Below, one piece after another: positions 3,638 through 57,679 of a stretch of 64,000 nt of DNA (position 1 is its first letter; every line of letters begins with the position of its first letter). The translations under genes were made by a program, and so were the position numbers. The DNA is from Patescibacteria group bacterium UBA926 (lineage in GTDB: Bacteria; Patescibacteriota; Doudnabacteria; UBA920): contig DBDS01000004.1 of NCBI GenBank assembly GCA_002293685.1, forward strand, positions 34,479-98,478. The letters are read 5' to 3'. Under the pieces are notes generated by a model that searched no databases, was not told where the DNA came from, and was given only the letters and a program-made list of their open reading frames with translations.

Positions 3638-3673
3638 TGTCATCCTGAGTCCGCCAAAGGCGGACGAAGGATC
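3638..3673. repeat. GC-rich palindromic mini-element copy E1 (TGTCATCCTGAG-TCCGCCAAAGGCGGA-CGAAGGATC)
   Basis: TGTCATCC terminus with an internal perfect palindrome, set in AT-rich intergenic DNA between rplT and rpmI. Confidence 0.8.
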
Positions 3674-3737
3674 TAGGTTAAAGTCATGGGTTTAGAGATC
3701 CCTCGATAAGCTCTGGATAAAATTTGCTTTGCAAATT

Positions 3738-3932
3738 TTACTTGTGAACAATAAGAGCTTTGATACGGTTGTTAGCAGGGCTAAGTTTAGAATCACGGCG
3801 CTTATTTTTAACGACTTTACCGGTTTCTCTTGTGTTGAAATGATCTTGTCCGCTTGTGCGATGCATGATCTTACCAGTTTTGGTCTTGCGGAAGCGCTTG
3901 GCGGTTCCTTGATGAGTTTTTAATTTGGGCAT
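3738..3932 (-). CDS. rpmI: 50S ribosomal protein L35
   Basis: 64-aa protein MPKLKTHQGTAKRFRKTKTGKIMHR..., the conserved L35 sequence. Confidence 0.95.
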   Translation of the reverse strand: MPKLKTHQGTAKRFRKTKTGKIMHRTSGQDHFNTRETGKVVKNKRRDSKLSPANNRIKALIVHK

Positions 3933-3940
3933 AGTATTGT

Positions 3941-4008
3941 TGTCATCCCAATAGAATTAGGATTTGGTTTAATGAAAGATGGATCCCGGGTCGAGCCCGG
4001 GATGACAA
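3941..4008. repeat. GC-rich palindromic mini-element copy E2 with termini TGTCATCCC / GGGATGACA
   Basis: TGTCATCCC at 3941-3949 and GGGATGACAA at 4001-4008. An internal GGATCCCGGGTCGAGCCCGGGAT palindrome is present. Confidence 0.85.
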
Positions 4009-4024
4009 TTTGCTGCGCAAATTA

Positions 4025-4606
4025 TCACTTAGTAGGGGCGATGGTCATGCCGATTGTGTTTCCAGCTTTCTTCGGCGGTACTTCAATCCGATAGGGGGCG
4101 GTTAAAGCTGCTTTGAAAGATTCCAGTTGCTGATGAGCAACATCGAGGAACGCTTGTTCGCGACCACGCATTCTTAGTTCCAGTTTAACCCAATCGCCGT
4201 CCAATAGGAATTCGTCGGCGCGCTTTGCTTTTGTAGCAATATCGTGGGCAGCAATTTTAGCACTTAAGCGAATCGTTTTGACTTCAACTTTCTTTACGCG
4301 CTTCTTTTGTTGCTGTTCCATTTTCTTTTGCTGATACCTGAACTTGTCGAAACTAATGATTTTGACAACAGGAGGCTTAGCCTGCGGAGATACTTCTACG
4401 AGGTCTAGTCCATGCTCTTCAGCTAAAGCAATAGCTTCTTTGATTGGCAAAATGCCCAATTGTTCACCTACATCATTGAGTAGTCGAACTTCTGGTGCAG
4501 TTATTTGCCGATTGATTCGGGTTTTTTGCAAAGTCTTTTCTAATAAATTTACCTGTAACTGAGCTAAATTATAGCTTTTCTTTAAGATTTTGTCAAAGAA
4601 GGTCAA
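4025..4606 (-). CDS. infC: translation initiation factor IF-3 (true start probably internal or non-AUG)
   Basis: Contains ITAPEVRLLNDVGEQLGI...LDLVEVSPQAKPPVVKIISFDKFRYQQKK. infC-rpmI-rplT gene order is conserved. The N-terminal ~30 aa of the called ORF are probably not translated. Confidence 0.9.
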   Translation of the reverse strand: MTFFDKILKKSYNLAQLQVNLLEKTLQKTRINRQITAPEVRLLNDVGEQLGILPIKEAIALAEEHGLDLVEVSPQAKPPVVKIISFDKFRYQQKKMEQQQKKRVKKVEVKTIRLSAKIAAHDIATKAKRADEFLLDGDWVKLELRMRGREQAFLDVAHQQLESFKAALTAPYRIEVPPKKAGNTIGMTIAPTK

Positions 4607-4646
4607 AATGTGAGATAATATAGTAAAGAAATTCTAAAGAAACAAA

Positions 4647-6011
4647 ATGAAACCAAAAGACATAGTGACTCAAGTTGCAGAAGCCCCTGCGAAAGCTTTG
4701 GAGACAGCTGTTTTGGAAAGTCAGCACGCACTTCGGAGTATTAATAAACCTTGGCGTGAAGCAGAGGATTATTGGTATGCTCTGGGCCCAGGATTAACCA
4801 CTGGAGCATCGGATGACGATCCTTCTGGTATTGCCACTTATTCTCAGGCCGGAGCTTTGTACGGTTTTACTTTGCTTTGGATGGCGCCCTTAACTTTTCC
4901 GTTGATGTCGGTTGTTCAAGAGATGTGCGCTCGCATTGGCTTGGCAACCGGCCGTGGTTTGGCGAGTAATATTCGTGAACGATACTCAGTAAAAGTTTTG
5001 TATGCGCTTACTGCAATATTATTTTTCACAAATGTGATTAATATCGGAGCTGATTTAGGTGCGATGGCCGCGGCTGGCCAAATGCTGTTTCCAGCTTTTA
5101 ATTTTTATACTTTCTTAGGAATATTCACCGTGGTCAGTTTGGGTCTGCAAATTTTTATTACGTATTCTCAGTACGCTCGGTTTTTAAAGTATCTTACTTT
5201 AGTTTTGTTTTTGTATATCATCACCGCGCTGACTTTAGATAATTTACCGTGGCGAGAGATTTGGCAGAATACGATTTGGCCAAATATTACTTGGTCTAAG
5301 GGAACGATTATTATGATTTGTGCGATTCTTGGTACAACGATTTCACCGTATCTGTTTTTTTGGCAGACTGCCCAAGAAGTTGAGTCCAGAAGAGAAGAAG
5401 GCCGAATTAATCCAAAACTCAGACATCAACTTGTAACCAAACGAGAAGTTAGGCGAATGCGTTTTGATGTAATCGCAGGAATGTTCATTTCAAATTTAGT
5501 GATGTTTTTTATCATCGTGACATGTGGAGCGGTTTTATTCCCAGCTGGAATTGAAATTGAAACTGCCGAGCAGGCTGCGTTAGCATTGCAACCATTAGCG
5601 GGTGATCAAGCATATATTTTATTCGCCCTGGGAATTATTGGAACTGGTTTACTGGCGATTCCGGTTTTGGCAGGTAGTGCAGCGTATGCGTTAGCCGAAA
5701 CTTTCAAATGGTCTTCTGGTTTAAATAAAGGACTTAGTCACGCGCGTGCTTTCTACGGCGTGATAATTATCGGAATGTTCCTCGGTCTGGGTATCAACTT
5801 CCTCGGAATAAATCCCATTAAGGCATTAATTTATTCAGCTGTTTTAAATGGAATTACAGCACCAATTATTTTGTACTTCATTGTTAAGCTTAGTAGCGAT
5901 AAAGATTTGATGGGCAAATGGGTTAGTGGCAAGTTTGCGAAATCGGTTGGTTATTCGGTGATTGTGTTAATGACTGTGGCCGCAATTGGCGCTATCATCG
6001 CTTTCTTTTAG
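4647..6011 (+). CDS. NRAMP-family divalent metal cation transporter
   Basis: 454-aa polytopic membrane protein. The motif GPGLTTGASDDDPSGIATYSQAGA is typical of NRAMP/MntH-related transporters. Confidence 0.7.
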   Translation: MKPKDIVTQVAEAPAKALETAVLESQHALRSINKPWREAEDYWYALGPGLTTGASDDDPSGIATYSQAGALYGFTLLWMAPLTFPLMSVVQEMCARIGLATGRGLASNIRERYSVKVLYALTAILFFTNVINIGADLGAMAAAGQMLFPAFNFYTFLGIFTVVSLGLQIFITYSQYARFLKYLTLVLFLYIITALTLDNLPWREIWQNTIWPNITWSKGTIIMICAILGTTISPYLFFWQTAQEVESRREEGRINPKLRHQLVTKREVRRMRFDVIAGMFISNLVMFFIIVTCGAVLFPAGIEIETAEQAALALQPLAGDQAYILFALGIIGTGLLAIPVLAGSAAYALAETFKWSSGLNKGLSHARAFYGVIIIGMFLGLGINFLGINPIKALIYSAVLNGITAPIILYFIVKLSSDKDLMGKWVSGKFAKSVGYSVIVLMTVAAIGAIIAFF

Positions 6012-6066
6012 TTTTGACTTTTTTTTAGCTCAGCGGTAATATTTTCTTATCACACAGGAGGTAAAT

Positions 6067-7570: not shown

Positions 7571-7693
7571 TGTCATCCCCGCCGCTAGATATTTCCTATG
7601 TCATCCCCGCGAAGGCGGGGATCCATTAGGGCACTTATAGATTCCGGATTTCCCGCGTTCACCTTCGGTGAACTTGTAGAATCCGGAATGACG
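7571..7693. repeat. composite GC-rich palindromic element E3 (two TGTCATCCCC starts, ATCCCCGCGAAGGCGGGGAT palindrome, GTTCACC-TTC-GGTGAAC palindrome, end CCGGAATGAC)
   Basis: Read directly from the sequence. It lies between the hydrolase start and the csp terminator. Confidence 0.8.
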
Positions 7694-8121: not shown

Positions 8122-9390
8122 TTAGTTTGATTTAGCCGCATTTTCTCCCGCGAGATAGCCGGTAGTCCAGCAGATTTGCAAACTATACCCGCCGGAGGGT
8201 CTATCGAAGTTTAAGATATCGCCGGCGAGGTAAAGATTGCTGTAGAGTTTGGATTGCATAGTTTTGAAATCAATTTCATTTAAAACAACACCGCCAGAAG
8301 TTACCACCGCTTTTTCTTCTCCTAAGAATCCGCTCACAGACATGGGTAGTACTTTTATTAACCTAACTATTTTCATGCGGTCAGTTTTGGTTAAATTGTT
8401 AGTAGTGATTTCAGGGTTGATTCTTGTGAACTGCAAAATGGTTGAAATCATTTTAGGAGGCACGATTGAACCTAAGTTGTTTTTCACTTGTTTGTTTAAA
8501 GCTTTACCGAGGAGCTCTAGAAAATGTTTATCCAAAGTTCCCAAATCCATATCGGGGTAAAGGTCGAGTTCTAGATTTACAGGCGCGTATTTAAATAGCT
8601 CAGAGATTCCTTTGCTCATGTTCAAAACTAACGGGCCACTGATTCCAAAATGGGTAAGCAAAATTTTACCAGTGCGTGATTCTTGTTTTTCTTTGCCTTG
8701 AAAAACTGTCAGTTTGGCATTTTTAAAACTCACTCCAGAAAGTTTCTTTACCCAATCATCATGTAGCCTGATAGGAACTAAAGCCGGATCAGATTCTTCA
8801 ACTGTATGACCAAGCTCTTTCATCCATTCCATGCCTTCACCTGTGGAGCCGGTTTCTGGGCGAGACTTTCCGCCTGTTGCGATTACGTAATGCTTTGCGG
8901 TGTAAGTTTGTTTTGAGGTTTTGATTCCAGTGATTAAATTTGTCTCCTTGTTGAACAAGACTTTCTTAACAGGGGAGTCGGAGATAATTGTAACGCCTGA
9001 ATCTTTTAAGTATTTAACTAATACCTTCCAAACGTCTTCGGCTTTATTACTGACAGGGAAAGCTCGCTTTTCGGCTTCAACTTTTGTTGGCAGATTCTTA
9101 ACGTGAAAGAAGTCGAGTGTATCTTCCACACCGAAACGCGCAAAAGCGCTATACAAGGATTTGCCTTTGACGCCGTACTTTGCGATTAATTTTTTCACAT
9201 CAAATTCCGCGTTGGTGATGTTACATCGACCACCGCCAGTGATAAGTAATTTTTTGCCAAGCTTATTGTTCTTTTCGATTATGGCAACTTTTGCGCCAAG
9301 CTCAGCCGCGCGACCAGCCGCCATCATTCCTGCCGGACCGCCACCTACGACAATTACATCAAAATCGGATTTTGAAACTTTCTGATTCAT
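8122..9390 (-). CDS. HI0933-family NAD(P)/FAD-dependent flavoprotein (BaiN-like)
   Basis: Contains DVIVVGGGPAGMMAA and TGGGRCNITN signatures. Confidence 0.85.
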   Translation of the reverse strand: MNQKVSKSDFDVIVVGGGPAGMMAAGRAAELGAKVAIIEKNNKLGKKLLITGGGRCNITNAEFDVKKLIAKYGVKGKSLYSAFARFGVEDTLDFFHVKNLPTKVEAEKRAFPVSNKAEDVWKVLVKYLKDSGVTIISDSPVKKVLFNKETNLITGIKTSKQTYTAKHYVIATGGKSRPETGSTGEGMEWMKELGHTVEESDPALVPIRLHDDWVKKLSGVSFKNAKLTVFQGKEKQESRTGKILLTHFGISGPLVLNMSKGISELFKYAPVNLELDLYPDMDLGTLDKHFLELLGKALNKQVKNNLGSIVPPKMISTILQFTRINPEITTNNLTKTDRMKIVRLIKVLPMSVSGFLGEEKAVVTSGGVVLNEIDFKTMQSKLYSNLYLAGDILNFDRPSGGYSLQICWTTGYLAGENAAKSN

Positions 9391-11162: not shown

Positions 11163-11720
11163 TTATAACGAGTATTTATAAAGGAGTGTTTCAATCACGT
11201 TTTGGTGTTTTAATCGGAGTTCCTCGTCGCGACCAATCTCGATGATTTCATCGTTGCGGTCTGTACCGCTTGCTGTCCAGTTGAAAGAACCAGTGAAATA
11301 AGATTTTTCGGTGACCAAAGTTTTCAAATGCATAATCGAACTATGATCGTTGAAGGCGATTGGGATTCCTGCTTGTTGTAAATCTTTTACAATTGATTCT
11401 TGGATATCTAAGGTGGTTGATTGTTTCTTATCCATGACCCTGCGCACTTCAACACCTCTATATTTAGCACCAATGAGAGCGTCTTTGATGTCTTGTCTGG
11501 TGAAAGTATAAATCGCGAAATACACAAACCGTTCGGCTTCGTTTATTTCGTTGATTAATAACTCGTTGCTAGCCACTTCTTTGTTGTAATACACTTCCAC
11601 TTGGCGTGCTGCACGTTCTTGCCACGCCGGTTCAACATGAAAAGAATAATAGAACTGCGCGCTCACGGCGATAAGCCCTGCTATTATAGTGACGTAGATT
11701 AAGTCTCTGTTGATTTTCAC
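11163..11720 (-). CDS. phospholipase D-family (HKD-motif) protein, Nuc-like
   Basis: HLKTLVTEKSYFTGSFNWT matches HxK(x)4D(x)6GSxN. An N-terminal TM helix is present. The GTG start lies inside the inverted-repeat module. Confidence 0.65.
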   Translation of the reverse strand: MKINRDLIYVTIIAGLIAVSAQFYYSFHVEPAWQERAARQVEVYYNKEVASNELLINEINEAERFVYFAIYTFTRQDIKDALIGAKYRGVEVRRVMDKKQSTTLDIQESIVKDLQQAGIPIAFNDHSSIMHLKTLVTEKSYFTGSFNWTASGTDRNDEIIEIGRDEELRLKHQNVIETLLYKYSL

Positions 11721-11816
11721 CCTGTTAAATTATTAATATTGATTTAGATGCTCAGATTTATGAACAACTATTCAACCTGTTGAATCTGAAAGTTAAAATG
11801 TATTTAACAGGGTGAA
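11716..11816. repeat. ORF-less inverted-repeat module TTCACCCTGTTAAAT ... ATTTAACAGGGTGAA (15-bp perfect inverted repeat, ~70-bp spacer)
   Basis: Read directly from the sequence. The repeats match the terminal repeats of the GIY-YIG cassette at 18104-18382. One repeat overlaps the start codon of the PLD-like gene. Confidence 0.8.
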
Positions 11817-11877
11817 TATTTATATTATAAAACAGGACGTTCAAACCCTGTTTAAGAAAAACTCAATTTTGATGTAA

Positions 11878-14582: not shown

Positions 14583-14740
14583 TGTCATCCCGGCAGCTAC
14601 AAGTGGTCCCCGCTTTCGCGGGGATAAACTCCGCGAGGACGAGGGCTAGCCGGGATCCATACCCTTTAAACTAATGGATTCCCACCTTCGAGCTCGCGAT
14701 GCTCGGGCTCTGCCCGAGCAAGCTCGTGTGGGAATGACAA
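14583..14740. repeat. composite GC-rich palindromic element E4 (TGTCATCCCGGCAGCTACAAG...CTAGCCGGGATCC followed by GGATTCCCAC...GTGGGAATGACAA)
   Basis: The first half is the reverse-complement homolog of elements at 26060-26150 and 57601-57679. It lies between argS and ileS and ends 9 bp before the ileS start. Confidence 0.85.
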
Positions 14741-18072: not shown

Positions 18073-18103
18073 ATATTAATCACAGCTTGTTTGATATAAT
18101 TAA

Positions 18104-18382
18104 CCCTGTTAAATAATTTCAAATTTAAACATGCACTATGTTTATGTACTGTGTTCAGAGAAGGATAAAAAATGGTATACTGGTTATACTAGAAATTTGA
18201 AATTAAGATTTGAGCAACATAGGTTAGGTAAAGTAGTTTCTACTAAGCATCGCAGGCCTTTGAAGCTAATTTATTATGAAGCCTGTTTGAACCAACAAGA
18301 TGCAACTCACCGAGAAAAGTATTTAAAAACTTTTCATAGTAAAGTATTTATCAAACGTAGGCTCAAATCTTATTTAACAGGG
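18104..18382 (+). mobile_element. minimal GIY-YIG cassette: 84-aa nuclease gene bounded by inverted repeats CCCTGTTAAATAA / TATTTAACAGGG
   Basis: The inverted repeats abut the ORF, whose last codons YLTG* are encoded by the right-hand repeat. ORF-less repeat pairs occur at 11716-11816, 12734-12825 and 57209-57313. Confidence 0.6.
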
Positions 18383-21764: not shown

Positions 21765-21806
21765 ACTCTACCCCGATTTGTGCGGCCGCACAAATCGGGG
21801 TAGAGT
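21765..21806. repeat. 42-bp perfect palindrome (second copy of the GCGGCCGC-core hairpin) between convergent genes
   Basis: ACTCTACCCCGATTTGTGCGG|CCGCACAAATCGGGGTAGAGT. Its 36-bp core is identical to 192-227. Confidence 0.9.
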
Positions 21807-23476: not shown

Positions 23477-25606
23477 ATGGAACTTAATCATCTCAATCAA
23501 GCACAACGTACAGCCGTGACCGCTCCGCTCGGTCCGGTTTTGGTTTTGGCCGGTGCAGGAAGCGGGAAGACTCGCGTTTTAACTTACCGAATCGCTCATA
23601 TTATAGAGCAGGGGCTTTACCGCCCTGATCAAATATTGGCAGTGACTTTTACAAATAAAGCGGCTAAGGAAATGCAAAGTCGTATTGCGAAATTACTTGC
23701 CGAAGGTGGCAACCAGAAGTTGGTGAGTCAGCCAGTTCTTGGAACTTTCCATTCCATTGGTGTTCGAATTCTCAGAAAATATATTTCTAAGCTCGGTTAT
23801 AACCCAAGTTTCTCGATTGCCGACAGCGACGATCAGTTAAAAATTATTAAGGATATTTTAAAAGATTTAGCTGTGCCGAAGCAGTTCGGAGCACCGTTAT
23901 TTAGAGCTTACATCTCTTCGGCGAAGAACTTGTTGCAAACCCCTGCCCAAATGGACTTAGGTTTGGATGGTCATATCCGTGATTTAGCGGCTCAGGTCTA
24001 CGGGCGTTATCAAGACTTTCTATTTAAGCAGAACAATGTTGATTTTGATGATTTGTTAATGCTACCAATCATTTTGTTTCAGAATTTCCCTGAAGTACTA
24101 AGATCTTTCCAAGAGCGATGGCAGTATATATTAGTAGACGAGTATCAGGACACCAACCAAGCTCAGTATATGTTCCTTCATTTATTGGCAAAATCAGGAA
24201 ATATTTTTGTGGTTGGTGACGACGCTCAAAGTATTTATGGTTTTCGTGGTAGTAATATTGCTAATATCTTAAATTTTGAAAAGGACTTTCCAAACGCCCA
24301 AGTGATTAAACTTGAACAAAATTATCGTTCTACTAAGAATATTTTAGCGGCTGCACAAAAAGTTATTGAGTTGAATAGTGAGCAAAAACCAAAAACGTTA
24401 TGGACCGATAATGATGATGGCGATAAGGTTATGATTAAAGAGGTTTATGATGGTCACACTGAAGCTGTGTTTGTCGCCAAAAAGATTGTTAGTCTTTCCT
24501 CAGGGGTAGAAGACGAATGGGAATATGAACTAGATGATGATGAACAACCTCAAACCTTCTCTATATTAGATACTTTTTTAGCACAGCAAAAGCGACGAGG
24601 CGGTTCTGGTAAATCATGGTCTGGAGCAATTGGCATTCCGCAGCTGCCAAAAAACCATGGACCATTAAATGAGTTTGCTGTTTTGTATCGCACTCATGCG
24701 CAGAGTCGTCAGATTGAAGAAGTTTTCATAACAGCAGGAATCCCATATCACATTGTTGGCGGTGTGAAGTTCTATGAACGAAAAGAAATCAAAGATGTTT
24801 TAGCATATCTTAGATTGTTGATTAATCCGCTCGATATCTTAGCTTTAGATAGAGTTATTAATTTGCCACCACGAGGAATTGGTGAAAAATCATTCGAGCA
24901 AATCCGAAAGTATGTACTTGCTTTGCCAAAAGGTTTGTCGGTTGAGGAAGTCGCTACAAAATTAGGACAATTAGCATTACCCCCAAAGCAGCGAGCTGGT
25001 TTAAATCAGTTCTGGGGAATTTTGAAAAAAGCTGCTTTGGTTCCGGAAGAAGTGACTCTTTCGGAATTACTTAAAGTTGTTGTCAAGCTTTCGGGAATCG
25101 ATGATTTGTTAAATGATGGTACTGACATAGGTGAAGTTCGTCGCGAAAACGTTCGTGAATTGTTTAACGTGACTGCAAAATTTGATAACACGGCTTGGCA
25201 TGAAGGCCTTCAGTTGTTTTTAGAGGAAGTCGCCTTAATCACTGATTTAGACAACTTAACTGATGAACGCAACTCTGTAACATTGATGACACTTCATGCT
25301 GCAAAAGGTTTGGAGTTCGATACTGTGTTTTTTGTAGGCTTAGAAGAAGGGATTTTGCCTCATACTAATAGTTTGTTTGATCCAAAAGAATTGGCAGAAG
25401 AGGTTAGATTGGCCTACGTTGGCTTGACTCGTGCCCGTAAGAGATTATTTTTATTATATGCGCAAGGCCGTCAGATGTACGGCAGTTTTCAGAATAATGC
25501 TCCTTCACGTATTTTACACGCGCTACCTAAAGAAGTTATTAATGCAGCAGCGGGTACTAAGCTCGCAGCTCAGGATGGCGATTATTCCTACGAACCATTT
25601 GAGTAA
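23477..25606 (+). CDS. pcrA: ATP-dependent DNA helicase, UvrD/PcrA family
   Basis: 709-aa protein with Walker A VLAGAGSGKTRVLTYR and helicase motifs (DEYQDTN, VGDDAQSIYGFRG). Confidence 0.9.
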   Translation: MELNHLNQAQRTAVTAPLGPVLVLAGAGSGKTRVLTYRIAHIIEQGLYRPDQILAVTFTNKAAKEMQSRIAKLLAEGGNQKLVSQPVLGTFHSIGVRILRKYISKLGYNPSFSIADSDDQLKIIKDILKDLAVPKQFGAPLFRAYISSAKNLLQTPAQMDLGLDGHIRDLAAQVYGRYQDFLFKQNNVDFDDLLMLPIILFQNFPEVLRSFQERWQYILVDEYQDTNQAQYMFLHLLAKSGNIFVVGDDAQSIYGFRGSNIANILNFEKDFPNAQVIKLEQNYRSTKNILAAAQKVIELNSEQKPKTLWTDNDDGDKVMIKEVYDGHTEAVFVAKKIVSLSSGVEDEWEYELDDDEQPQTFSILDTFLAQQKRRGGSGKSWSGAIGIPQLPKNHGPLNEFAVLYRTHAQSRQIEEVFITAGIPYHIVGGVKFYERKEIKDVLAYLRLLINPLDILALDRVINLPPRGIGEKSFEQIRKYVLALPKGLSVEEVATKLGQLALPPKQRAGLNQFWGILKKAALVPEEVTLSELLKVVVKLSGIDDLLNDGTDIGEVRRENVRELFNVTAKFDNTAWHEGLQLFLEEVALITDLDNLTDERNSVTLMTLHAAKGLEFDTVFFVGLEEGILPHTNSLFDPKELAEEVRLAYVGLTRARKRLFLLYAQGRQMYGSFQNNAPSRILHALPKEVINAAAGTKLAAQDGDYSYEPFE

Positions 25607-25614
25607 GGAATAAA

Positions 25615-25693
25615 CAGTAATCAGTAAGAAGTAAATAGTAGTAAGTAAGAAGGGTAAATACATTTTACTTATTACTCTTTACTTTCTACTTAA
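25615..25693. repeat. AT-rich GTAAG/CTTAC imperfect long hairpin just upstream of rsmA
   Basis: AGTAAGAAGTAAATAGTAGTAAGTAAGAAGG...CATTTTACTTATTACTCTTTACTTTCTACTT. A similar element lies at 35795-35888. Confidence 0.6.
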
Positions 25694-25700: not shown

Positions 25701-26654
25701 ATGACAATAGATACTCTTAAAAGTTTATTAAAACACTATGGTCTAAATCCTAACAAGACATACGGTCAGCATTTTTTAATGGACGAAACAATTCTTGAAG
25801 ACATGGCTGATGTTGCTGATGTTAAAGCGGGGGATATGGTTGTAGAAATCGGACCAGGGATTGGTAACTTGACTGAAATTTTGTTAAAGCGAGAAGCAAC
25901 TGTTTTATCAATTGAAAAAGATGAACAGTTTATAAGAGTTCTTCGCACGCTTTCAAAGCAATACAAAAATTTTGAGTATGAGTTAATTGATGCATTGAAA
26001 TTTAATTTCTCCTCTTTCCTGTCATCCCCGGGCGAGCGTAGTGAGAACCGGGGATCCACTAGTGGGTCCCGGCTAGCCCGCGCGACTTCGTCCGCCAAAA
26101 TCTCTACGAGATTTAGGCGGACTTCGTCGCTTGTAGCTGCCGGGAAGACACCACAGTATAAAGTTGTCGCCAACATTCCTTACTACATCACTGGGAAAAT
26201 TGTTCAATTGTTTTTGAAGCAGGAGCATAAACCAAAAAGCATGACATTGCTTATGCAGAAAGAAGTTGCTAACAATATTGTTGCGAAAGTTGGACAACTA
26301 AACTTGTTAGCAATTTCTGTACAACTATATGGCGACGCAAAATTAGTTACAAAAGTTCCTGCTTTTAAATTTCATCCGGCTCCAAAAGTTGAGAGCGCAG
26401 TTATTCATATCGAATTATTTTCCAAACCAAAATATAAATTGAAAGACGAGCAAAAGTTTTTTCGAGTGTTGCGCGCTTGCTTTGCAGGGAAGCGAAAGCA
26501 AATCCATAACACACTGACAAATAATTTAGGACTAGAAAAAACTGTTGCATTGCAAAGTTTGGAAAATATAAATGTTGACCCAACGGCAAGACCACAGCAA
26601 CTAACAATCGAACAATGGATTAAGTTAGTAGACTCAATTGAATTGCCAAATTAA
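25701..26654 (+). CDS. rsmA: 16S rRNA (adenine1518/1519-N6)-dimethyltransferase RsmA/KsgA with ~44-codon in-frame GC-rich insert
   Basis: Contains GQHFLMDE, VVEIGPGIGNLT and YKVVANIPYYITG motifs. It is 317 aa versus ~270 for typical KsgA. The insert lies between FNF and YKVVANIPY. Confidence 0.9.
   Translation: MTIDTLKSLLKHYGLNPNKTYGQHFLMDETILEDMADVADVKAGDMVVEIGPGIGNLTEILLKREATVLSIEKDEQFIRVLRTLSKQYKNFEYELIDALKFNFSSFLSSPGERSENRGSTSGSRLARATSSAKISTRFRRTSSLVAAGKTPQYKVVANIPYYITGKIVQLFLKQEHKPKSMTLLMQKEVANNIVAKVGQLNLLAISVQLYGDAKLVTKVPAFKFHPAPKVESAVIHIELFSKPKYKLKDEQKFFRVLRACFAGKRKQIHNTLTNNLGLEKTVALQSLENINVDPTARPQQLTIEQWIKLVDSIELPN
26019..26150. repeat. GC-rich palindromic element E6 inserted in frame in rsmA
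   Basis: TGTCATCCCCGGGCGAGCGTAGTGAGAACCGGGGATCCACTAGTGGGTCCCGGCTAGCCCGCGCGACTTCGTCCGCCAAAATCTCTACGAGATTTAGGCGGACTTCGTCGCTTGTAGCTGCCGGGAAGACA. It is homologous to 53002-53039, 57601-57679 and 14583-14657. Confidence 0.9.
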
Positions 26655-26667: not shown

Positions 26668-26782
26668 TGTCATCCTGAGCGTAGCGAATGATCTAGTTCC
26701 GAGATTCTTCGGCTTTGCCTCAGAATGACATTTGGCACTCCGCATTTGAGTTAAAAATGATCCCGGGTCTCAGCCCGGGATT
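26668..26782. repeat. GC-rich palindromic element E7 (12-bp termini TGTCATCCTGAG / CTCAGAATGACA) plus GATCCCGGGTCTCAGCCCGGGATTT hairpin
   Basis: The element sits in the convergent intergenic region and probably doubles as a bidirectional terminator. Its reverse complement is homologous to the gatB insert at 60733-60822. Confidence 0.85.
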
Positions 26783-35794: not shown

Positions 35795-35888
35795 AGTTAG
35801 GAAGTAAGCAGTAGAAAGTAGTGAGTAAGACTCTACTGATCCGAACCTGGCTAAAATTACTTCTTACTTCTTACTATTTATTTCTTAG
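35795..35888. repeat. AT-rich GTAAG/CTTAC imperfect hairpin upstream of the VirB3-like gene
   Basis: GGAAGTAAGCAGTAGAAAGTAGTGAGTAAG...TTACTTCTTACTTCTTACTATTT. An extended -10 TGGTATAAT at 35782-35790 precedes it. Confidence 0.55.
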
Positions 35889-38898: not shown

Positions 38899-39055
38899 GT
38901 CATTCTGAACAAAGCAACTTCATCATTCTGAGCTCTTCGAAGAATCTACCTCTGTCATTCTGAAGCCGTAGGCTGAAGAATCCAATAATTAGAGATCCTT
39001 CGCTTCGCCCGCCAAAATCCCTTTGAGATTTAGGCGGATTACGCTCAGGATGGCA
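38899..39055. repeat. GC-rich element E8: three tandem GTCATTCTGA(A/G) sub-units plus a CGCCAAAATCCCTTTGAGATTTAGGCGGA module
   Basis: Read directly from the sequence. The CGCCAAAATC...GAGATTTAGGCGGA module also occurs inside the rsmA insert at 26085-26125. Confidence 0.85.
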
Positions 39056-40015
39056 TCTCCTAACATGTTACTTCTAGACTCCACAAACTTTAATGCATCC
39101 GATTCAAACGAATCTCTCTCAGACGAGAGAGATTCTTTTGTTGGTAATGATCAAGAACAAGACGGGGATCGTGAAGAGTTAAAAGCAAAAGCTAAGCAAA
39201 ATGCACTGTCCCGGTTGAGCGCACCTAAACCATTAAATTTGAATCAGCGTGTGCCAGGTTCGCAAGGTTCAAGTAGTTCGATGGGTGGCGTTGGTAAACC
39301 AGGAATTGCTAAACAAAAACTTGGCCGTGACCCACAGAAACTTTCTGGATATGGTGGAGCTGGAGGCCCTTCTGCAATGAAATCTTCAGGAGTAGGTAAT
39401 ACCAAGTCTTCGATGGGAAAAGCAAAGACTTCATCTGTGAAAAAGGGTGGTAAGGGTGATGCAGTCAATGCTGTTAAAGATGTGGCAAATCAGGTGCCTG
39501 TTATTGGTCAAAAAGTTTCTGCAAAAATTGCAAGCTTGCAAGAAGACGAGGGACGCTTGATAGGATTTTTGCTCTGGGTTATTTGGGGATTGCTATCAAT
39601 TGCTGGATTGATTGTTTCCATTAGTATAGTTGGGATAGTTATTGCGGCCCCAGTCATTTTAATCTTTAATTTATTATTGATTTCACCTCGGCTAGTTTAT
39701 AGACTCACGGTCTGGATATTAGATTTATTTGGGATTGGTGAATTCCTGCAAGGAGCTGAAAAGTCAGGAATTATTGATAAACATACAATTAGAATCGGTG
39801 GTTTCGAAAAAACCACTATAATTTTATTTGATATCTTGCTCTTCATCGGAATTGTCCTGATGTTGGTGATGTTTGTTTACTTCTCATGTTGGTTAGGTGA
39901 GCAGACAGGAGTATTGGGTACAGGTTTTGCAAAGGTGGTATTAACCGGTTATGACTGGTGGAATGGAACTGAATACGCATCTATAGTAGATCAAGTCTGC
40001 GGGCTTGTAAATTAA
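39023..40015 (+). CDS. hypothetical membrane protein (G/S/K-rich N-terminus, 4-5 TM helices at C-terminus); start uncertain
   Basis: The called TTG start lies inside element E8. Alternative ATG starts are at 39048 and 39066. Confidence 0.4.
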   Translation: MRFRRITLRMASPNMLLLDSTNFNASDSNESLSDERDSFVGNDQEQDGDREELKAKAKQNALSRLSAPKPLNLNQRVPGSQGSSSSMGGVGKPGIAKQKLGRDPQKLSGYGGAGGPSAMKSSGVGNTKSSMGKAKTSSVKKGGKGDAVNAVKDVANQVPVIGQKVSAKIASLQEDEGRLIGFLLWVIWGLLSIAGLIVSISIVGIVIAAPVILIFNLLLISPRLVYRLTVWILDLFGIGEFLQGAEKSGIIDKHTIRIGGFEKTTIILFDILLFIGIVLMLVMFVYFSCWLGEQTGVLGTGFAKVVLTGYDWWNGTEYASIVDQVCGLVN

Positions 40016-40074: not shown

Positions 40075-41238
40075 ATGAATAAAAAAGCAATTGCGATATT
40101 AGGTGGGATATTTATCCTTATTGTCGGTACTTTAGGGGTAATTATTTATTTACGCTCAACAGGTGATGATGAGCCAACTACTCCAGTGGAAACTCCACCT
40201 GTGGTTATTCAAGAACCTGTGATAGATTTTCCGGATTTTGAAGAACCGGAGCCAACTCCAGTTACAGGTTCTGGGGCTACTCGATTAACAGATGAAGCAG
40301 TGATTACGCCTGCCTTGTTTTTCCAAGGAAATGGCATCGCTTATTTTAACAGACAGGGTCAGTTATTCAGAACTGATATGGCCATTTCAGGTTCCACTGT
40401 CTTACTAAGTAATAAAACTGAGATCACCATTCCTCCTAAAAGTGGTATTTCAAAAATATTATGGCCTCTAGTTGGACAAAGTTTTATAGCTGAATCTGGA
40501 GTCGGTTTGGCACGTCAGTGGAGTTACTATAACCCAGAAACTGGGGTGTACGTTGAATTGCCAAGACAGGTGAAAAGTCTAAGCTGGATGCCTGATGGTA
40601 CAAAAATTGTGTTCGTGTGGGTAGACGATAATGGAAATGCTACTTTAAATCTGGCTAACCCAGACACGACTGGGTACCAATTACTGTCTGAGCTATATGA
40701 TAGTGATATTGAAATTATGGTTTCCCCTGATGGGCGGACCATTGCTTATTACAGAAATCAAAACACCAATTTAAGTGAGAATGGTTTGTTTACAGTATCA
40801 GCAGATGGCCAGACATGGGGGACAATCACTCGTGAAGGTTATAACCGCGGAGTATTATGGAGTCCAGATAGCCGTAAGTTGTTATTCAGTAAGCGGGATA
40901 GTTCAGGTTCATCAACTCTTTGGATGGCCGATCTTACAACTTCGCAAGTGAAAAGTCTGGGCGTGAGCTCAAGTGAAACCAAAGCTGTGTGGAGTCGCGA
41001 CAGTCAAAGCGTTGTTGTTGCGGTGCCAAGTTCGGGTGGTGTCGGCAGTGGTTTAACATCTGATTCAATTGCTAAAATAGATGTGATGTCTGGTTCTAAA
41101 ACCGATTTCAGCTTAGGAAGCGGTGTGGATGCGCAAGAATTATTCTTGAACCTTGAAGAAAATATATTATTCTTCCGTAACGCTCAAGACGGATCTCTTT
41201 ACTATTTGTTCCTATCCTCACCTAGTTCTTCGTTTTAA
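40075..41238 (+). CDS. membrane-anchored beta-propeller protein (TolB/PD40-like repeats)
   Basis: N-terminal TM helix plus repeated WxPDG / SPDGR motifs. Confidence 0.5.
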   Translation: MNKKAIAILGGIFILIVGTLGVIIYLRSTGDDEPTTPVETPPVVIQEPVIDFPDFEEPEPTPVTGSGATRLTDEAVITPALFFQGNGIAYFNRQGQLFRTDMAISGSTVLLSNKTEITIPPKSGISKILWPLVGQSFIAESGVGLARQWSYYNPETGVYVELPRQVKSLSWMPDGTKIVFVWVDDNGNATLNLANPDTTGYQLLSELYDSDIEIMVSPDGRTIAYYRNQNTNLSENGLFTVSADGQTWGTITREGYNRGVLWSPDSRKLLFSKRDSSGSSTLWMADLTTSQVKSLGVSSSETKAVWSRDSQSVVVAVPSSGGVGSGLTSDSIAKIDVMSGSKTDFSLGSGVDAQELFLNLEENILFFRNAQDGSLYYLFLSSPSSSF

Positions 41239-41283
41239 AAATACTATACACAAAATTTTATATTATCCTTGGCTTAACTAAGT

Positions 41284-41376
41284 ATCCCCGGCGAAGGCCG
41301 GGGCCTACATCACAGATCCCGGATCGCCTTTGGCGTCCGGGAATACTTTTTTTGTCATCTCAGCGTCTGGGAATAC
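41284..41376. repeat. GC-rich palindromic element E9 (ATCCCCGGCGAAGGCCGGGG ... ATCCCGGATCGCCTTTGGCGTCCGGGAAT ... TGTCATCTCAGCGTCTGGGAAT)
   Basis: Homologous to the segment at 62717-62790 inside miaA. Confidence 0.85.
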
Positions 41377-41491
41377 TTCTCATATCAACCCGCAAATAAT
41401 TTAATCTGCCGGGTTTTTAATTTTCAAAATCTTATTGCAACTTTGAGATTTTCTTAATCTGGATTTTAAAGCAATAAGGTATAATATCTTT

Positions 41492-46023: not shown

Positions 46024-46111
<88 letters not shown>

Positions 46112-46550
46112 ACGTCGTACTTGTCTCCGAGCTTTCGGTACAGGCTAAAGCCTGTCCCTTACGCTCTCCATCAAGTACTCCTCTCACATTCACGCTTAAC
46201 CTCGCTATCGCTCGGCCCAAGTGTGAATGTGGTAAACTCACTTTCTTGGTCGCGGATACGGCAAGCCGTCCCGCTCCTTGTTCGCACTGGCGAAGCCAGA
46301 CGCTCACATGCTAAAGAATATTGTTGCCCTACGGGCATCTAAGATAAATCTAAATTGTGGATACTGTAAGTAGGACCTCCCTAACTACACTGTCTAAATG
46401 ACTCTACTATTATAACATTTTACCAAACTAAATCAAAAACGAGCCGTACTCTAGAATTGGCTCGTTTTTTGTTGGGTTTCGATTTCTGGTAGTACTATCA
46501 TTTCTGGATGGACGCCCACTTGGACTCAACTGGGCGTAGACCAAAAAGGA

Positions 46551-48505: not shown

Positions 48506-48598
<93 letters not shown>

Positions 48599-48810
48599 TC
48601 GTCGCAACAACCTCCATCCGTTCAAATTTGGCTAAAGCCAAATTTTCACTAGTTCCGGTGTTGCTCCTCTCACATTCACGCTTAACCTCACTACGCTCGG
48701 CCCAAGTGTGAATGTGTCAAATTATTAATACAGTCGCGGATGCTGCAAGCGGCCCCGCAGATATGTATCAATAACTCACTCATTTTACTGCAAAAGTGGT
48801 CATTGGTCAA

Positions 48811-49565: not shown

Positions 49566-49673
49566 TGTCATTCCTGGGCGCGAGCGGAGTGGGCGAACCG
49601 GGAATCTATTAAAGTGACAAGCTGATTTAGTGGATCCCCGGTTCTCACCCTACGGGTGAGCCCAGGGATGACA
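49566..49673. repeat. GC-rich palindromic element E10 with 13-bp termini TGTCATTCCTGGG / CCCAGGGATGACA
   Basis: 108-bp unit in AT-rich intergenic DNA, with internal palindromes CCGGTTCTCACCCTACGGGTGAGCCCAGG. Confidence 0.9.
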
Positions 49674-49723: not shown

Positions 49724-49750
49724 TAAAACCCCGCCTTTAAGCGGGGTTTG
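49724..49750 (-). terminator. terminator hairpin AAACCCCGC-TTAAAG-GCGGGGTTT plus T-run, downstream of clpC
   Basis: Perfect 9-bp stem followed by TTTT on the minus strand. Confidence 0.7.
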
Positions 49751-52631: not shown

Positions 52632-53144
52632 ATGTTTAAGAAAGCTCGACCACTGAAAGATCCTTCCGATTACGACCACGGCTATCAATATGCCTTATTC
52701 TTGCTCAATTTAAGCATGCGGACTGTTGGCGAAGTAAGAGACAAAATGACTAGTCGCGGATACACTTCTACTGTAATAAACGAAGTTATAAACAATCTGT
52801 TACAAGAAAAATACTTGAACGACTCAAATTATGCCGAAGTTTTTATAAATAGTATGAAAAACTATAAAACTTGGGGTCGGTTCATGATGAAAAAGAAGAT
52901 GTATGAGAAAAAATTACCGAAAGAATTAATTGACGAAAGCTTAAATGAATTTTTAAGTACCAAAGAAGAGAAGGAAATTGCTATGAGGTATCTATCTTCC
53001 ATGTCATCCTCGGTCGAGCGAAGCGAGAACCGGGGATCCATTGAATGGATTAAATCCCTGCCTTACGACGAAAAACAAAAACTAATGAGAAAGTTATTAT
53101 CACGCGGGTTTGGGATGGACATAGTAACAAAACTAATAAAATAA
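52632..53144 (+). CDS. recX: RecX-family regulatory protein with short in-frame GC-rich insert
   Basis: 170-aa ORF with a three-helical-repeat pattern (YALFLLNLSMRTVGEVRDKM...). Confidence 0.6.
   Translation: MFKKARPLKDPSDYDHGYQYALFLLNLSMRTVGEVRDKMTSRGYTSTVINEVINNLLQEKYLNDSNYAEVFINSMKNYKTWGRFMMKKKMYEKKLPKELIDESLNEFLSTKEEKEIAMRYLSSMSSSVERSENRGSIEWIKSLPYDEKQKLMRKLLSRGFGMDIVTKLIK
53002..53039. repeat. truncated copy of the rsmA-type GC-rich element inside recX (TGTCATCCTCGGTCGAGCGAAGCGAGAACCGGGGATCC)
   Basis: ~85% identical to 26021-26055. It is translated in the same frame (ERSENRGS). Confidence 0.85.
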
Positions 53145-56505: not shown

Positions 56506-56709
56506 ATGAAAAAGGATGAAGTTGAAAATTCTGACCCAAAAGTAGGTTTGGTTCAAACGATCAATTCCCACGGGTTTTTGGATAAAGGTGACGACTGTGA
56601 TCGCGCCATGATACTACAAGGCATCAGAGAACGCACATCCCAGCGTTTAGTGAGGAGATTCGCGGGCAAAGGGTTAAGACGAAGAATTCACACTCAGGAG
56701 GGTCAGTAA
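56506..56709 (+). CDS. hypothetical small protein 1 of a GC-rich three-gene cluster
   Basis: RBS AACGGAGGAAAAAATG. Local GC is ~50% versus ~38% in the flanks. Confidence 0.4.
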   Translation: MKKDEVENSDPKVGLVQTINSHGFLDKGDDCDRAMILQGIRERTSQRLVRRFAGKGLRRRIHTQEGQ

Positions 56710-56921
56710 TGGAAGGTAATTCTTGCGGCAAGGGCCATGTTGGCAATTCACGCTTACGCTTTACTAAGGAGCAGGCGGAGTCGGAAGCTGTTAAGCATCC
56801 AGCGGTCAATGATCATGGATTGTTAACAAAGCGATATCGGTTACAGAGTCGCTATGGGTTAGAGGTTGGAAAGAACAGCAAACAGGAGGTTGAAAATGAG
56901 CATTCGTCGAGAGAGTGGTAG
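56709..56921 (+). CDS. hypothetical small protein 2
   Basis: RBS AGGAGGGTCAGTAATG overlapping the upstream stop. Confidence 0.4.
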   Translation: MEGNSCGKGHVGNSRLRFTKEQAESEAVKHPAVNDHGLLTKRYRLQSRYGLEVGKNSKQEVENEHSSREW

Positions 56922-57135
56922 GCCGGGATTTGTTCGAAGTTCTGGCATGGAAGACTTGGTTGCCAAACCTGCCCAAGGTGTGGTCGGTATTGGTATCGAA
57001 GGATTAAGTCCGAGCGAAGTACAGGACATAGTAAATAGTCCAAATCGGATCGGACCGGATGAAGTGCGTCGTTACACCGATGAAGAAATACACCAATCAT
57101 GGGGTGCGGAGCGCAACTTCGGGGCATTGAAGTGA
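56896..57135 (+). CDS. hypothetical small protein 3
   Basis: RBS ACAGGAGGTTGAAAATG. It overlaps the 3' end of protein 2 in another frame. Confidence 0.4.
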   Translation: MSIRRESGRPGFVRSSGMEDLVAKPAQGVVGIGIEGLSPSEVQDIVNSPNRIGPDEVRRYTDEEIHQSWGAERNFGALK

Positions 57136-57155
57136 ACTTATGTTCATTGCATTAT

Positions 57156-57186
57156 AGCGCAGACTTTGTTCTGCGCTTTTCTATTT
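57156..57186 (+). terminator. intrinsic terminator AGCGCAG-ACTTTGTT-CTGCGCT plus TTTCTATTTT
   Basis: Perfect 7-bp stem plus T-run after the small-ORF cluster. Confidence 0.8.
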
Positions 57187-57208
57187 TATTTATTCCCTCT
57201 ATAATTTA

Positions 57209-57313
57209 CCCTGTTAAATATAGCTGAAATTAGCTAGTTTAGAAGACGTGTTTTGGTTTCGTAAAAGTGTTATAATTAACACATAAATCATAAATAATTT
57301 AACAAGGTAAATG
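57209..57313. repeat. ORF-less inverted-repeat module CCCTGTTAAATA ... ATTTAACAAGGTAAATG abutting the gatC start, with internal extended -10 TGTTATAAT
   Basis: Same half-sites as the GIY-YIG cassette. The right-hand half-site is degenerate by one base. TATAAT at 57271-57276. Confidence 0.7.
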
Positions 57314-57592
57314 TTAACCCCTGAAGAAGTAAGAAAAATCGCTCAATTAGCCCGAATTGAACTCCGTGAAGGAGAAGTTGAAAAGTTTCAGAAGGACTTG
57401 TCGTCAATTTTGGATTATGTTGAAGAGTTGAAAGCGGTTGATACCGACGGTTTGGATATTGTTTCCTCGGTGACAGGTTTAGAAAACGTTCAGCGACCAG
57501 ATAAAGCAGTGTTAATCGATTATCAAGAAGGCATTATGACAAATGCCCCTGAGCGAAAAGATCGTTATTATAAAGTGAAATCAATTTTGTAA
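57311..57592 (+). CDS. gatC: Asp/Glu-tRNA amidotransferase subunit C
   Basis: MLTPEEVRKIAQLARIELREGEVEKFQKDLSSILDYVEEL. Confidence 0.9.
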   Translation: MLTPEEVRKIAQLARIELREGEVEKFQKDLSSILDYVEELKAVDTDGLDIVSSVTGLENVQRPDKAVLIDYQEGIMTNAPERKDRYYKVKSIL

Positions 57593-57600
57593 TCTTAAGT

Positions 57601-57679
57601 ATCCTCGGGCAAAGACCCGGGGTCTGGATCCCGGCTAGCTCGCGCCCCGCTTCACGGGACTTGTAGCTGCCGGGATGAC
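57601..57679. repeat. GC-rich element E12 ending CCGGGATGAC, which overlaps the gatA ATG
   Basis: GGATCCCGGCTAGCTCGCGCCCCGCTTCACGGGACTTGTAGCTGCCGGGATGAC. It is homologous to 26060-26150 and to the reverse complement of 14583-14657. Confidence 0.85.

Follow-up and report, generated by a model that had tools for sequence, protein, structure and literature searches.

Of the palindromic repeats described in bacteria, those closest to the repeats reported here are the repetitive extragenic palindromes (REPs) of the CGTC-tagged superfamily, which comprises families CGTC-1 to CGTC-4 and includes the Rickettsia elements RPE-4 (= CGTC-4) and RPE-6 (= CGTC-1) and the Neisseria element dRS3 (Di Nocera, De Gregorio & Rocco, BMC Genomics 2013, PMC3733652). 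Each unit consists of a tag, CGTC or often TGTC (CCTC also occurs), a stem of 8 or 9 bp with at most one mismatch and A/T at its first and second positions, a loop of 4 nucleotides (nt) in CGTC-1 and 5 nt in CGTC-2 to CGTC-4, and a tail of approximately CCA. Head-to-head (HH) dimers predominate, tail-to-tail (TT) dimers are rare and head-to-tail (HT) arrangements negligible; the repeats mostly follow open reading frames (ORFs) in unidirectional or convergent spacers, and a minority lie in frame within genes, among them those of tRNA- and rRNA-modification enzymes and aminoacyl-tRNA synthetases, where they encode up to 82 residues (PMC3733652). They "apparently lack a dedicated transposase", no REP-associated tyrosine transposase (RAYT) being flanked by CGTC units in any surveyed species, and have been reported from five phyla: Proteobacteria, Chlorobi, Bacteroidetes, Spirochaetes and Thermotogae (PMC3733652). 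The 64,000-nt stretch of DNA analysed here (the window) comes from Patescibacteria group bacterium UBA926 (contig DBDS01000004.1, positions 34,479 to 98,478), whose phylum, Patescibacteria or Candidate Phyla Radiation (CPR), lies outside these five. A preliminary description of the window had listed nine intergenic blocks as non-autonomous MITEs (transposable elements of the miniature inverted-repeat type) or REP-like elements mobilised in trans. We show that they are built of REP-type hairpins of the CGTC-tagged superfamily, here mostly tagged TGTC. This is the first finding of the CGTC/TGTC superfamily in an ultra-small Patescibacteria genome; its units are variant, and the range of the superfamily is extended to the CPR.

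One family of tagged hairpins

Thirteen loci of one repeat family were found in the window, nine intergenic and four intragenic, together covering about 1.5 kb or 2.4% of the sequence (Table 1). A covariance model (R1), trained on an alignment (A2) of 16 simple units with an imposed 8-bp helix and searched against the window with filters off, identified 21 units at E<0.02, five of them long composite units outside the training set, and four to five weaker matches fell on variant or degenerate units. The motif TGTCATCC occurs 11 times compared with 1.33 expected, a count reached in 0 of 100 shuffles, and repeat finding returned shared modules that are 81-92% identical (D8, D9, D10, I10 and I25), including CCGCCAAAATC...GAGATTTAGGCGG at 26086 and 39003 (D10, 85% identical), GGCAGCTACAAG.../...CTAGCCGGGATCC at 14583, 26130 and 57620 (I10 and I25) and GATCCCGGG-N-CCCGGGATC at 3981 and 26760. 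The intragenic copies in RsmA, RecX and MiaA also came from repeat finding, and a scan for unit heads added the GatB copy, absent from the earlier listing. All nine intervals of the preliminary description thus hold members of the family and its three recurring modules were recovered, but the GC content of 55-70% it gave was too high: the intervals measure 0.45-0.67, three of them below 0.50, against 0.401 for the window and 0.26-0.45 for the 50-nt flanks.

The repeat unit is a single hairpin, not a block bounded by terminal inverted repeats (TIRs). It has four parts: a 4-nt unpaired 5' tag (NGTC), an 8-bp basal stem, a variable apical part and a 3-4-nt unpaired tail. Among the 21 R1 units the tag is TGTC in 13, CGTC in four, AGTC in two and something else in two (NGTC in 19 of 21), the stem follows the pattern ATYCYNNN / NNNRGRAT with A-T and T-A as its first two pairs in every case, and the tail is CCA (nine units), CTA (eight), CTC (three) or CTG (one). 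Two stem subtypes are about equally common, one with a perfect, CCCGG-like stem and mostly a CCA tail, the other with the strands CTGAG...CGAAG, a tandem G·A/A·G mismatch and a CTA or CTC tail. A variant head, GTATYCC instead of GTCATCC, is found in the units at 41283, 57600 and 62724.

The basal helix is borne out by the alignment of the 16 simple units, in which 85% of cells are paired compared with 13-52% in slid controls, and by covariation, with 16 double-sided changes against 6.5 in shuffles, an observed score reached in 0 of 500 shuffles and compensatory changes at four of the eight stem positions. When 20 units were folded as DNA the basal hairpin formed in 19, always leaving the tag and about 4 nt of tail unpaired; the exception, 26668-26696, is unfolded in its minimum-free-energy state, and z was -2.2 or lower in 13 of the 20. 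The apical part often holds one to three further stacked helices, with loops that are mostly 3 nt long and closed by C-G (GAA, GTA, GCA, AAA, AGA). The recurring modules are these successive helices of extended hairpins, each common to a few units or shared between subfamilies, as in the TCCGCC...GGCGGA helix that encloses TAAATCTC...GAGATTT. Nested transposition, in which whole units would have inserted into the loops of others, was considered and rejected because the inner hairpins have no GTC tag or ATC tail of their own.

An HH pair is present in 11 of the 13 loci. Other arrangements are the single unit at 53002 in RecX and the same-orientation tandems 38921/38953 and 62590/62632, the latter a 42-nt tandem in MiaA. 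It is because units mostly stand head to head, tag and basal stem of one facing those of another, that the blocks seem to carry TGTCATCC...GGATGACA TIRs. The inverted termini of 9-13 bp formerly said to bound the copies therefore hold only where two units meet in this way, and each copy taken for one element is a cluster of one to four hairpin units. No two copies are identical, apart from the 42-nt tandem duplication in MiaA, and beyond about 12 nt at either end they are highly heterogeneous.

The repeats, being GC-rich hairpins that follow genes in a genome rich in AT, could be unrelated terminators, or chance palindromes in AT-rich spacers, that merely look alike. However, 19-21 of the 21 units retain the unpaired tag and tail, TGTCATCC is 8-fold enriched over shuffles and the modules share the identities given above, while most copies lack a T-run, some lie inside ORFs and real terminator-like hairpins adjoin some of them. 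We regard this explanation as already refuted by the covariance-model and motif statistics, and give it practically no credence. Searches of Rfam at the gathering threshold and at E<=0.5 assigned no family to any element, returning only a tmRNA, two tRNA-Ser genes and spurious overlaps.

Nor is the family confined to this locus. Units occur at about one per 3 kb across the 64 kb, three more lie in the next 9 kb past the window end (none was found in the 5.4 kb preceding it), and members are present in Doudnabacteria-like contigs and across phyla, as described below. The subfamily-specific 20-mer GTCWTCCCGGCAGCTACAAG, present in the window, gave 0 matches in a metagenome collection that evidently lacks this organism, a result with no bearing on copy number.

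Table 1. Loci of the tagged hairpin family in the window and the left junction of the MiaA cluster in the window and two relatives. G·A-type, stem with tandem G·A mismatch; R1, covariance model.
Feature	Location	Units (strand)	Particulars	R1 match; DNA fold	Context
HH dimer	3638..3722	3638-3676 (+), 3694-3722 (-)	intact G·A-type unit; degenerate partner	37.5 bits (E=1.4e-6), 11.9 bits; -11.2 kcal/mol, z=-4.9	rpmI (L35) stop to rplT (L20) start, infC-rpmI-rplT operon, minus strand
HH dimer	3941..4008	3941-3966 (+), 3979-4007 (-)	AT-rich degenerate unit; 3979-4007 = TGTCATCCCGGGCTCGACCCGGGATCCAT, 8-bp stem, 5-nt loop CTCGA, CGTC-3-like	34.3 bits, E=8e-6; z=-3.6	infC stop to rpmI start
Cluster	7571..7693	7571-7598, then HH dimer 7599-7626 (+) / 7637-7693 (-)	first unit truncated; 7599-7626 CGTC-1-like, 8-bp stem, loop GAAG	30.0, 24.9 bits	43 nt downstream of cold-shock gene stop
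HH dimer	14583..14740	14583-14660 (+), 14674-14739 (-)	long composite units, each with nested inner hairpins; both outside training set	22.2, 20.0 bits; -22.7, -22.2 kcal/mol, z=-4.0, -6.1	ArgRS stop (14556) to IleRS start (14750)
Intragenic HH dimer	26013..26153	26020-26059 (+), 26062-26150 (-)	26062-26150: head GTCTTCC, three-level nested hairpin enclosing CCGCCTAAATCTC module		RsmA/KsgA (Pfam RrnaAD)
Cluster	26668..26782	HH dimer 26668-26696 (+), 26700-26730 (-); 26759-26781	G·A-type units; headless hairpin GATCCCGGGTCTCAGCCCGGGAT at 26759-26781	32.6, 34.0, 16.4 bits	between convergent RsmA stop (26654) and DUF192 gene stop (26798)
Four-unit cluster	38899..39056	38899-38920 (+), 38921-38949 (+), 38953-38985 (+), 38991-39055 (-)	first unit truncated; last composite, head TGCC	29.4, 36.7, 21.5 bits	8 nt downstream of VirB4-like gene stop
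HH dimer, GTATYCC heads	41283..41380	41283-41310 (+), 41312-41350 (-)	partial duplication of right end; direct repeat D8, 81% identical to 62724-62771	9.6 bits (weak)	45 nt downstream of ORF ending at 41238
HH dimer	49566..49673	49566-49609 (+), 49630-49673 (-)		33.5, 35.2 bits	downstream of ClpB, beyond ClpB terminator-like hairpin ~49727-49750
Single intragenic unit	52995..53041	(+)	in frame, peptide MSSSVERSENRGS	33.4 bits	RecX
HH heterodimer	57600..57680	57600-57627 (+), 57624-57680 (-)	GTATCC-headed unit; composite unit	21.7 bits; z=-3.9	fills GatC-GatA spacer; head overlaps first candidate GatA start codon
Intragenic HH dimer	60733..60821	60733-60762 (+), 60767-60797 (-), 60802-60821	partial third head at 60802-60821		GatB
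Intragenic cluster	62590..62830	(-); coding-strand order: host-flank/inverted-copy hairpin, 62755-62792, 62724-62751, 62590-62716	62724-62751 GTATCC-headed; 62590-62716 one partial and two complete 42-nt tandem G·A-type units; repeats D2, D8		MiaA, about 81 extra residues
MiaA junction, window	62792-62830		flank ACTGGAAAATGGA, loop TGACAG, inverted copy TTCCATTTTCCAGT
MiaA junction, L133	~375-400		flank ATGGCAA, loop AGA, inverted copy TTGCCAT
MiaA junction, L134	~8155-8185		flank ATTGGC, loop AAGCATG, inverted copy GCCAAT

Intergenic placement

The window belongs to a metagenome-assembled genome. Identical copies of its MiaA protein are encoded on contigs from ENA, JGI and NCBI, Ga0119928_1000004 and GCA_003446815.1 among them, and the nearest relatives with a name are Candidatus Doudnabacteria. 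Gene calls with Pfam matches cover the window plus 14 kb of flanking sequence (JGI contig Ga0119928_1000004, on which the window is positions 121134-57135 reversed) and describe ordinary housekeeping genes and a type-IV-secretion-like cluster. The preliminary description had noted no transposase in the window; the Pfam matches of all these gene calls include no transposase family, nor is a RAYT or Y1_Tnp (PF01797) gene seen in the window. All nine intergenic loci lie in unidirectional (eight) or convergent (one) spacers and none in a divergent one, each separated from an ORF stop by 8-88 nt. In the infC-rpmI-rplT operon, REP dimers occupy both spacers.

On the same side of each of these two dimers, at 3723-3745 and 4009-4030, is a similar small AT-rich hairpin, AATTTGC-NNN-GCAAATT, adjoining the upstream gene's stop codon. 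This arrangement points to a composite subfamily common to both dimers.

In-frame copies in housekeeping genes

All intragenic insertions are in frame and free of stop codons. REP clusters thereby lengthen five housekeeping proteins of a minimal genome by 9-81 residues: MiaA (+81), GatB (about +29 to +47), RsmA (+44), RseP (+16) and RecX (about +9). In solved homologues the counterpart of MiaA residues 56-136 is about 2 residues long (3d3q), that of GatB residues 346-392, with the insert peptide VILSDSEESQSSDPSASPQDDGKEISQDDG, about 5 (Aquifex GatB, 3h0l) and that of RsmA residues 108-151 about 8 (B. subtilis KsgA, 6ifs). The RecX unit is 87% identical to the RsmA unit 26013-26058 (repeat D9). 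Those who annotate CPR proteins or predict their structures should expect REP-derived inserts of this kind, for instance RHPERSEGS, VILSE... or SSPGERSENRGS.

A second in-frame palindromic repeat, unrelated to the first, is found in GatA (59025-59083, +) and in MiaA (62150-62210, coding strand -). It is made up of TCCCCTCCTT(T/TT)CAAGGAGGGGTGG, a short GC hairpin and ACGGGGTG, and encodes the peptide SPPFQGGV... The MiaA copy is absent in the relatives L007 and L009 introduced below, and other relatives hold LPSPxEGRVREG at the same MiaA site.

Presence and absence in related genomes

The window was compared with a 21-kb sequence of the same genome (L001), the strain L132 (98% identity) and two syntenic relatives, L007 (~80% nucleotide identity) and L009 (~78%). 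R1 found 10 units in L001 and four, at conserved positions, in L132; in L007 and L009 it found none at E<=0.05. In alignments with L007 and L009, block insertions or deletions coincide exactly with the REP clusters of MiaA (222+ nt), GatB (about 87 nt), RecX and RseP/M50 (48 nt) and of the spacer between RRF and RseP. The RecX, GatB and MiaA units are absent from the L007 and L009 orthologues, as is the MiaA insert from the closest relatives P0002 and P0003; the RRF-RseP spacer is empty in L007 and holds a diverged dimer without an inner helix in L009. Units and dimers have thus been gained or lost as blocks at orthologous sites, without target-site duplication.

These observations bear on the proposal that each 40-160-bp block is one classical MITE, a non-autonomous transposon bounded by TGTCATCC(Y)/(R)GGATGACA TIRs and moved by cut-and-paste through a distant DDE transposase. 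The blocks are indeed small, non-coding and structured with no transposase nearby, six of the nine intergenic ones end in inverted termini of 9-13 nt, and the dimer of the RRF-RseP spacer is present or absent as one block. Yet no target-site duplication was found at 11 cluster boundaries, where matches of 0-4 nt appear only when an offset of ±3 nt is allowed and are inconsistent in length and sequence, nor in comparisons of filled with empty sites. The conserved entity is the single hairpin, which occurs alone and in same-orientation tandems in the window and, in other phyla, alone as well as paired (176 exact units at 120 loci among the matches listed). The two arms of a block are usually units of different subfamilies, as in 14583-14740 and 57600-57680; the blocks vary too much in size and interior to be copies of one master element, and the window contains no insertion sequence (IS). 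A MITE origin is therefore very unlikely in our view. The earlier inference stands where it called the copies dispersed, non-coding, modular and REP-like, and the elements should be named tagged REP hairpins rather than MITEs.

One junction has a structure of its own. At the left end of the MiaA cluster (62792-62830) the host flank precedes an inverted copy of itself, with arms of 13 bp in the window and of 7 and 6 bp in two more distant relatives, L133 and L134. The flank varies by species and the inverted copy co-varies with it; such a copy was not evident at the other junctions. It may be a selected hairpin or the scar of a fold-back insertion.

Within the L132 strain the cluster at 38899..39056 is conserved in position. 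Its composite unit 38991-39055 differs from L132 8917-8981 by 8 substitutions (~12%), several of which break stem pairs, the head changing from TGCCATCC to TGTTATCC, while the neighbouring units are almost unchanged and the strains are ~98% identical overall.

Distribution of the tandem G·A subtype

For the mismatched subtype, 185,579 species-representative genomes were scanned for the exact pattern GTCATYCYGAGN{3,12}CGAAGRATC. With 21 fixed bases, three twofold-degenerate positions, 10 gap lengths and two strands in 596 Gb, about 0.3 matches would be expected by chance; at least 120 loci were found in at least 120 genomes from roughly 20 phyla. Hosts listed include Nitrospirota, Chloroflexota, Acidobacteriota, Bacteroidota, Bacillota, several classes of Pseudomonadota, Planctomycetota, Verrucomicrobiota, Omnitrophota, Gemmatimonadota, Melainabacteria, Saccharibacteria, Gracilibacteria, Paceibacterota and Komeilibacteria. 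Of the 176 exact units among the matches listed, 133 have T immediately ahead of GTC, 29 have C, seven A and seven G, and 84 carry the apex GCGNAGC; adjacent exact pairs are HH in 20 cases, TT in four and HT in one, and locus GC ranges from 0.29 to 0.69. The exact unit is also present, HH dimers included, in at least 120 viral contigs of IMG/VR (L135-L254), and several of the viral copies listed have an ORF for a capsid, portal, terminase or adaptor protein no more than 1.5 kb away.

The G·A subtype is thus very widely distributed and was probably missed by the published catalogue. A pruning step in that survey dropped palindromes with more than one stem mismatch (PMC3733652), and units with two G·A mismatches would therefore have been removed. 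When the 3408 ORFs lying up to 1.5 kb from units at the 240 listed loci, genomic and viral, were clustered all against all, no recurrent nuclease or transposase emerged; the recurrent neighbours were phage structural families (adaptor, terminase, capsid, portal) of related viral contigs and one helix-turn-helix protein. Inspection, without a Pfam search, of the ORFs between unit clusters in L074 and L050 found nothing transposase-like.

Mode of propagation

Conservation in the unit is limited to the tag, the hairpin's foot and the tail, and the apex is free to vary. A protein recognising a hairpin folded in single-stranded DNA (ssDNA) would constrain tag, foot and tail in this way, as RAYT and IS200-type HUH tyrosine transposases do for GTAG REPs. 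Such an enzyme, encoded away from the repeats, would act in trans on ssDNA during replication, and the resident copies would then probably be passive hairpins in 3' untranslated regions (UTRs), or neutral peptide insertions, decaying by point mutation. We favour propagation at the ssDNA level by a putative trans-acting enzyme because of this constraint, of the GCGNAGC and d(GNA) motifs at the apex and of the YGAR context of the mismatch. That context, as in CTGAG/CGAAG, is the one in which stable tandem sheared G·A pairs occur in DNA. Two papers describe GCGNAGC as an "extraordinarily stable mini-hairpin DNA" motif (PMC13037366) and d(GNA) triloops closed by C-G as a stability motif specific to DNA (PMC3201870). 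As a whole, the interpretation of the family as REP hairpins of the CGTC/TGTC superfamily, propagated in this manner, seems to us likely. What moves CGTC-type REPs has been a question since 2013, our literature search finding no follow-up on their mobilisation after that year, and a tiny genome rich in REPs is a convenient place to seek the answer.

Several observations weigh against this interpretation. Most units of the window have much longer interiors, with stacked or nested hairpins, than the 4-5-nt loops of CGTC-1 to CGTC-4. The G·A-type and intragenic units gain little stability in nearest-neighbour folding (z from -1.7 to +1.2; the intragenic ones have -1.7 to +1.1, compared with -3.6 to -6.5 for perfect-stem intergenic units), with parameters that give sheared G·A pairs no credit; for these units the argument for a DNA hairpin comes from the literature on sheared G·A pairs, which hints at such a structure. 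No mobilising enzyme was identified in ~73 kb of the genome, in keeping with the report of CGTC REPs without a dedicated transposase (PMC3733652). The relatives L133 and L134, whose MiaA is 58% identical to that of the window, carry family units at the same MiaA site and in the GatC-GatA spacer, and L134 has an HH dimer inside gatB (522 aa), at a site not aligned to that of the window. With the MiaA, GatB and GatC-GatA sites also occupied in these more distant genomes, L007 and L009 could differ from the window through a loss of units and not a gain, and there are two possible readings: repeated insertion at hot spots, or the precise loss of old insertions along the lineage of L007 and L009. 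There is no insertion polymorphism relative to the 98%-identical L132 (~15.6 kb, three loci), nor relative to L001-L006, which are at least 99.9% identical to the window; since, in addition, no copies are identical except the MiaA tandem, recent activity is not demonstrated.

The resident copies may have a role at the RNA level, and the units could even be RNA elements kept by selection, 3'-UTR or intercistronic structures that stabilise mRNA, mark processing sites or bind proteins through a tandem G·A motif, and that owe their spread to recombination or horizontal transfer instead of transposition. In RNA, tandem G·A pairs commonly serve proteins as recognition motifs, which counts in favour, as do the stem covariation, the placement of all intergenic copies just past ORF stops or within operons (infC-rpmI-rplT, ArgRS-IleRS, gatC-gatA) and the conservation of the exact G·A subtype over about 20 phyla and the GC range listed above; many REPs have also been suggested to act as RNA (PMC3733652). 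However, a function as UTR signals does not readily account for the in-frame copies in five housekeeping genes, and the closest relatives lack units at every orthologous site compared. The 3-nt GNA loops closed by C-G are a stability motif of DNA rather than RNA, going by the two papers cited above. Furthermore, the copy at 49566-49673 lies beyond the terminator-like hairpin of ClpB, and the composite unit at 38991-39055 has diverged between 98%-identical strains with loss of pairing. We consider it unlikely that selection as RNA accounts for the family.

Returning to ssDNA-level propagation, a bolder form of it can be put forward, though we think it unlikely. The consensus TGTCATYCTGAG-C(GNA)G-CGAAGRATCT might define one uncatalogued, pan-bacterial and phage-borne REP family whose mobilising or excising enzyme, not a RAYT, reads an ultra-stable ssDNA hairpin, the inverted flank in MiaA then being a fold-back or template-switch scar. 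If this were true, the conservation of the unit across genomes of 29-69% GC would reflect recognition of the ssDNA hairpin, and its abundance in a CPR genome of roughly 0.85 Mb (fewer than ~900 genes) would make the enzyme identifiable.

Other repeats in the window

Further repeats were noted outside this family. Two perfect palindromes of 36 nt, identical in sequence (CTACCCCGATTTGTGCGGCCGCACAAATCGGGGTAG), are separated by 21.5 kb (192-227 and 21768-21803); both are downstream of ORF 3' ends, and their CTAC/GTAG ends recall GTAG-tagged REPs. The motif TTAACAGGGTGAAT / ATTCACCCTGTTAA recurs in AT-rich spacers upstream of genes (11709-11737, 11790-11817, 18092-18121, 57204-57231 and 57290-57318; I2, I13, I16, I24) and may be a promoter or operator motif. 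Within 46024-46236 and 48506-48721, the genes for tRNA-Ser(TGA) and tRNA-Ser(GCT) are each followed by a near-identical non-tRNA segment of ~60 nt, the two being spaced 2.49 kb apart and 93-97% identical (46178-46236 and 48664-48721; D4, D5, D16, D20). Purine-rich AGTAAG-type tracts occupy spacers just upstream of genes at 25604-25652 and 35857-35887 (I4, I8, I18) and, in L001, at 2983-3150, the L001 tracts being absent in L007 and L009. Finally, a 21-nt tandem coding repeat (QQQAPAG-like) is found at 3063-3188, at the 3' end of ORF 2541-3191 (D1).

Comparison with known systems

Bacterial MITEs such as Correia/NEMIS, Nezha, Chunjie and the Coxiella elements QMITE1/2 resemble the present repeats in being small, non-coding, structured and intergenic, sometimes overlapping ORFs, but they have IS-matching TIRs and target-site duplications (e.g. 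TA, or the 2-11-nt direct repeats of the QMITEs), neither of which was found in the window. Literature searches returned no relevant paper joining MITEs with Patescibacteria, and a string search for the element sequence gave primer coincidences only. The GTAG REPs, REPINs and BIMEs of E. coli and Pseudomonas, moved by RAYT/TnpA-REP, share the unpaired 5' tetranucleotide, inverted doublets, a position after ORFs and the lack of target-site duplication, and differ in their tag, GTAG/GTGG instead of (T/C)GTC. They provide the best available mechanistic analogy, in which an HUH enzyme reads a tetranucleotide and the foot of an ssDNA hairpin.

The Rickettsia palindromic elements, especially RPE-4 and RPE-6, are likewise selfish palindromes of a reduced genome: they carry the CGTC tag, interrupt housekeeping genes without shifting the reading frame, are tolerated as additional stretches of peptide and vary in presence among related species. 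Their hosts, however, are intracellular alphaproteobacteria and not free-living or episymbiotic CPR bacteria, and heterogeneity is greater among the units of the window. RPE-1, the classic form, is longer, at about 100-150 bp, and has a consensus of its own.

With the CGTC superfamily the window units share the tag, the A-T/T-A foot of the stem, the tail, the predominance of HH pairs, their placement, in-frame copies and the lack of an adjacent transposase. The likeness is closest in two units. Read in frame 1, unit 7599-7626 (GTC ATC CCC GCG AAG GCG GGG ATC) gives VIPAKAGI, exactly as CGTC-1 REPs are listed to do in R. conorii, S. wittichii and C. chlorochromatii (PMC3733652 supplement), and the CTCGA loop of unit 3979-4007 resembles CGTC-3 (GTCATGCCCGGGCTTGACCCGGGCATC, back-translated from the listed peptides). 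A search with R1 of 50 kb of S. meliloti pSymB, a listed CGTC-3 host, gave no matches, CGTC-3 differing from the model; this result is uninformative because CGTC-3 is both unlike R1 and sparse there, with only 15 singles and 8 dimers in the 1.68-Mb pSymB (PMC3733652 supplement). Unlike the published families, about half of the window units carry the tandem G·A mismatch (CTGAG/CGAAG) and a CTA/CTC tail, and a GTATYCC-headed variant exists. Since the loop and mismatch limits of CGTC-1 to CGTC-4 fit only 7599-7626 and 3979-4007, the others having interiors of 11-70 nt or two G·A mismatches, the repeats of this Patescibacteria genome are members of the CGTC superfamily that stand mostly outside its four published families.

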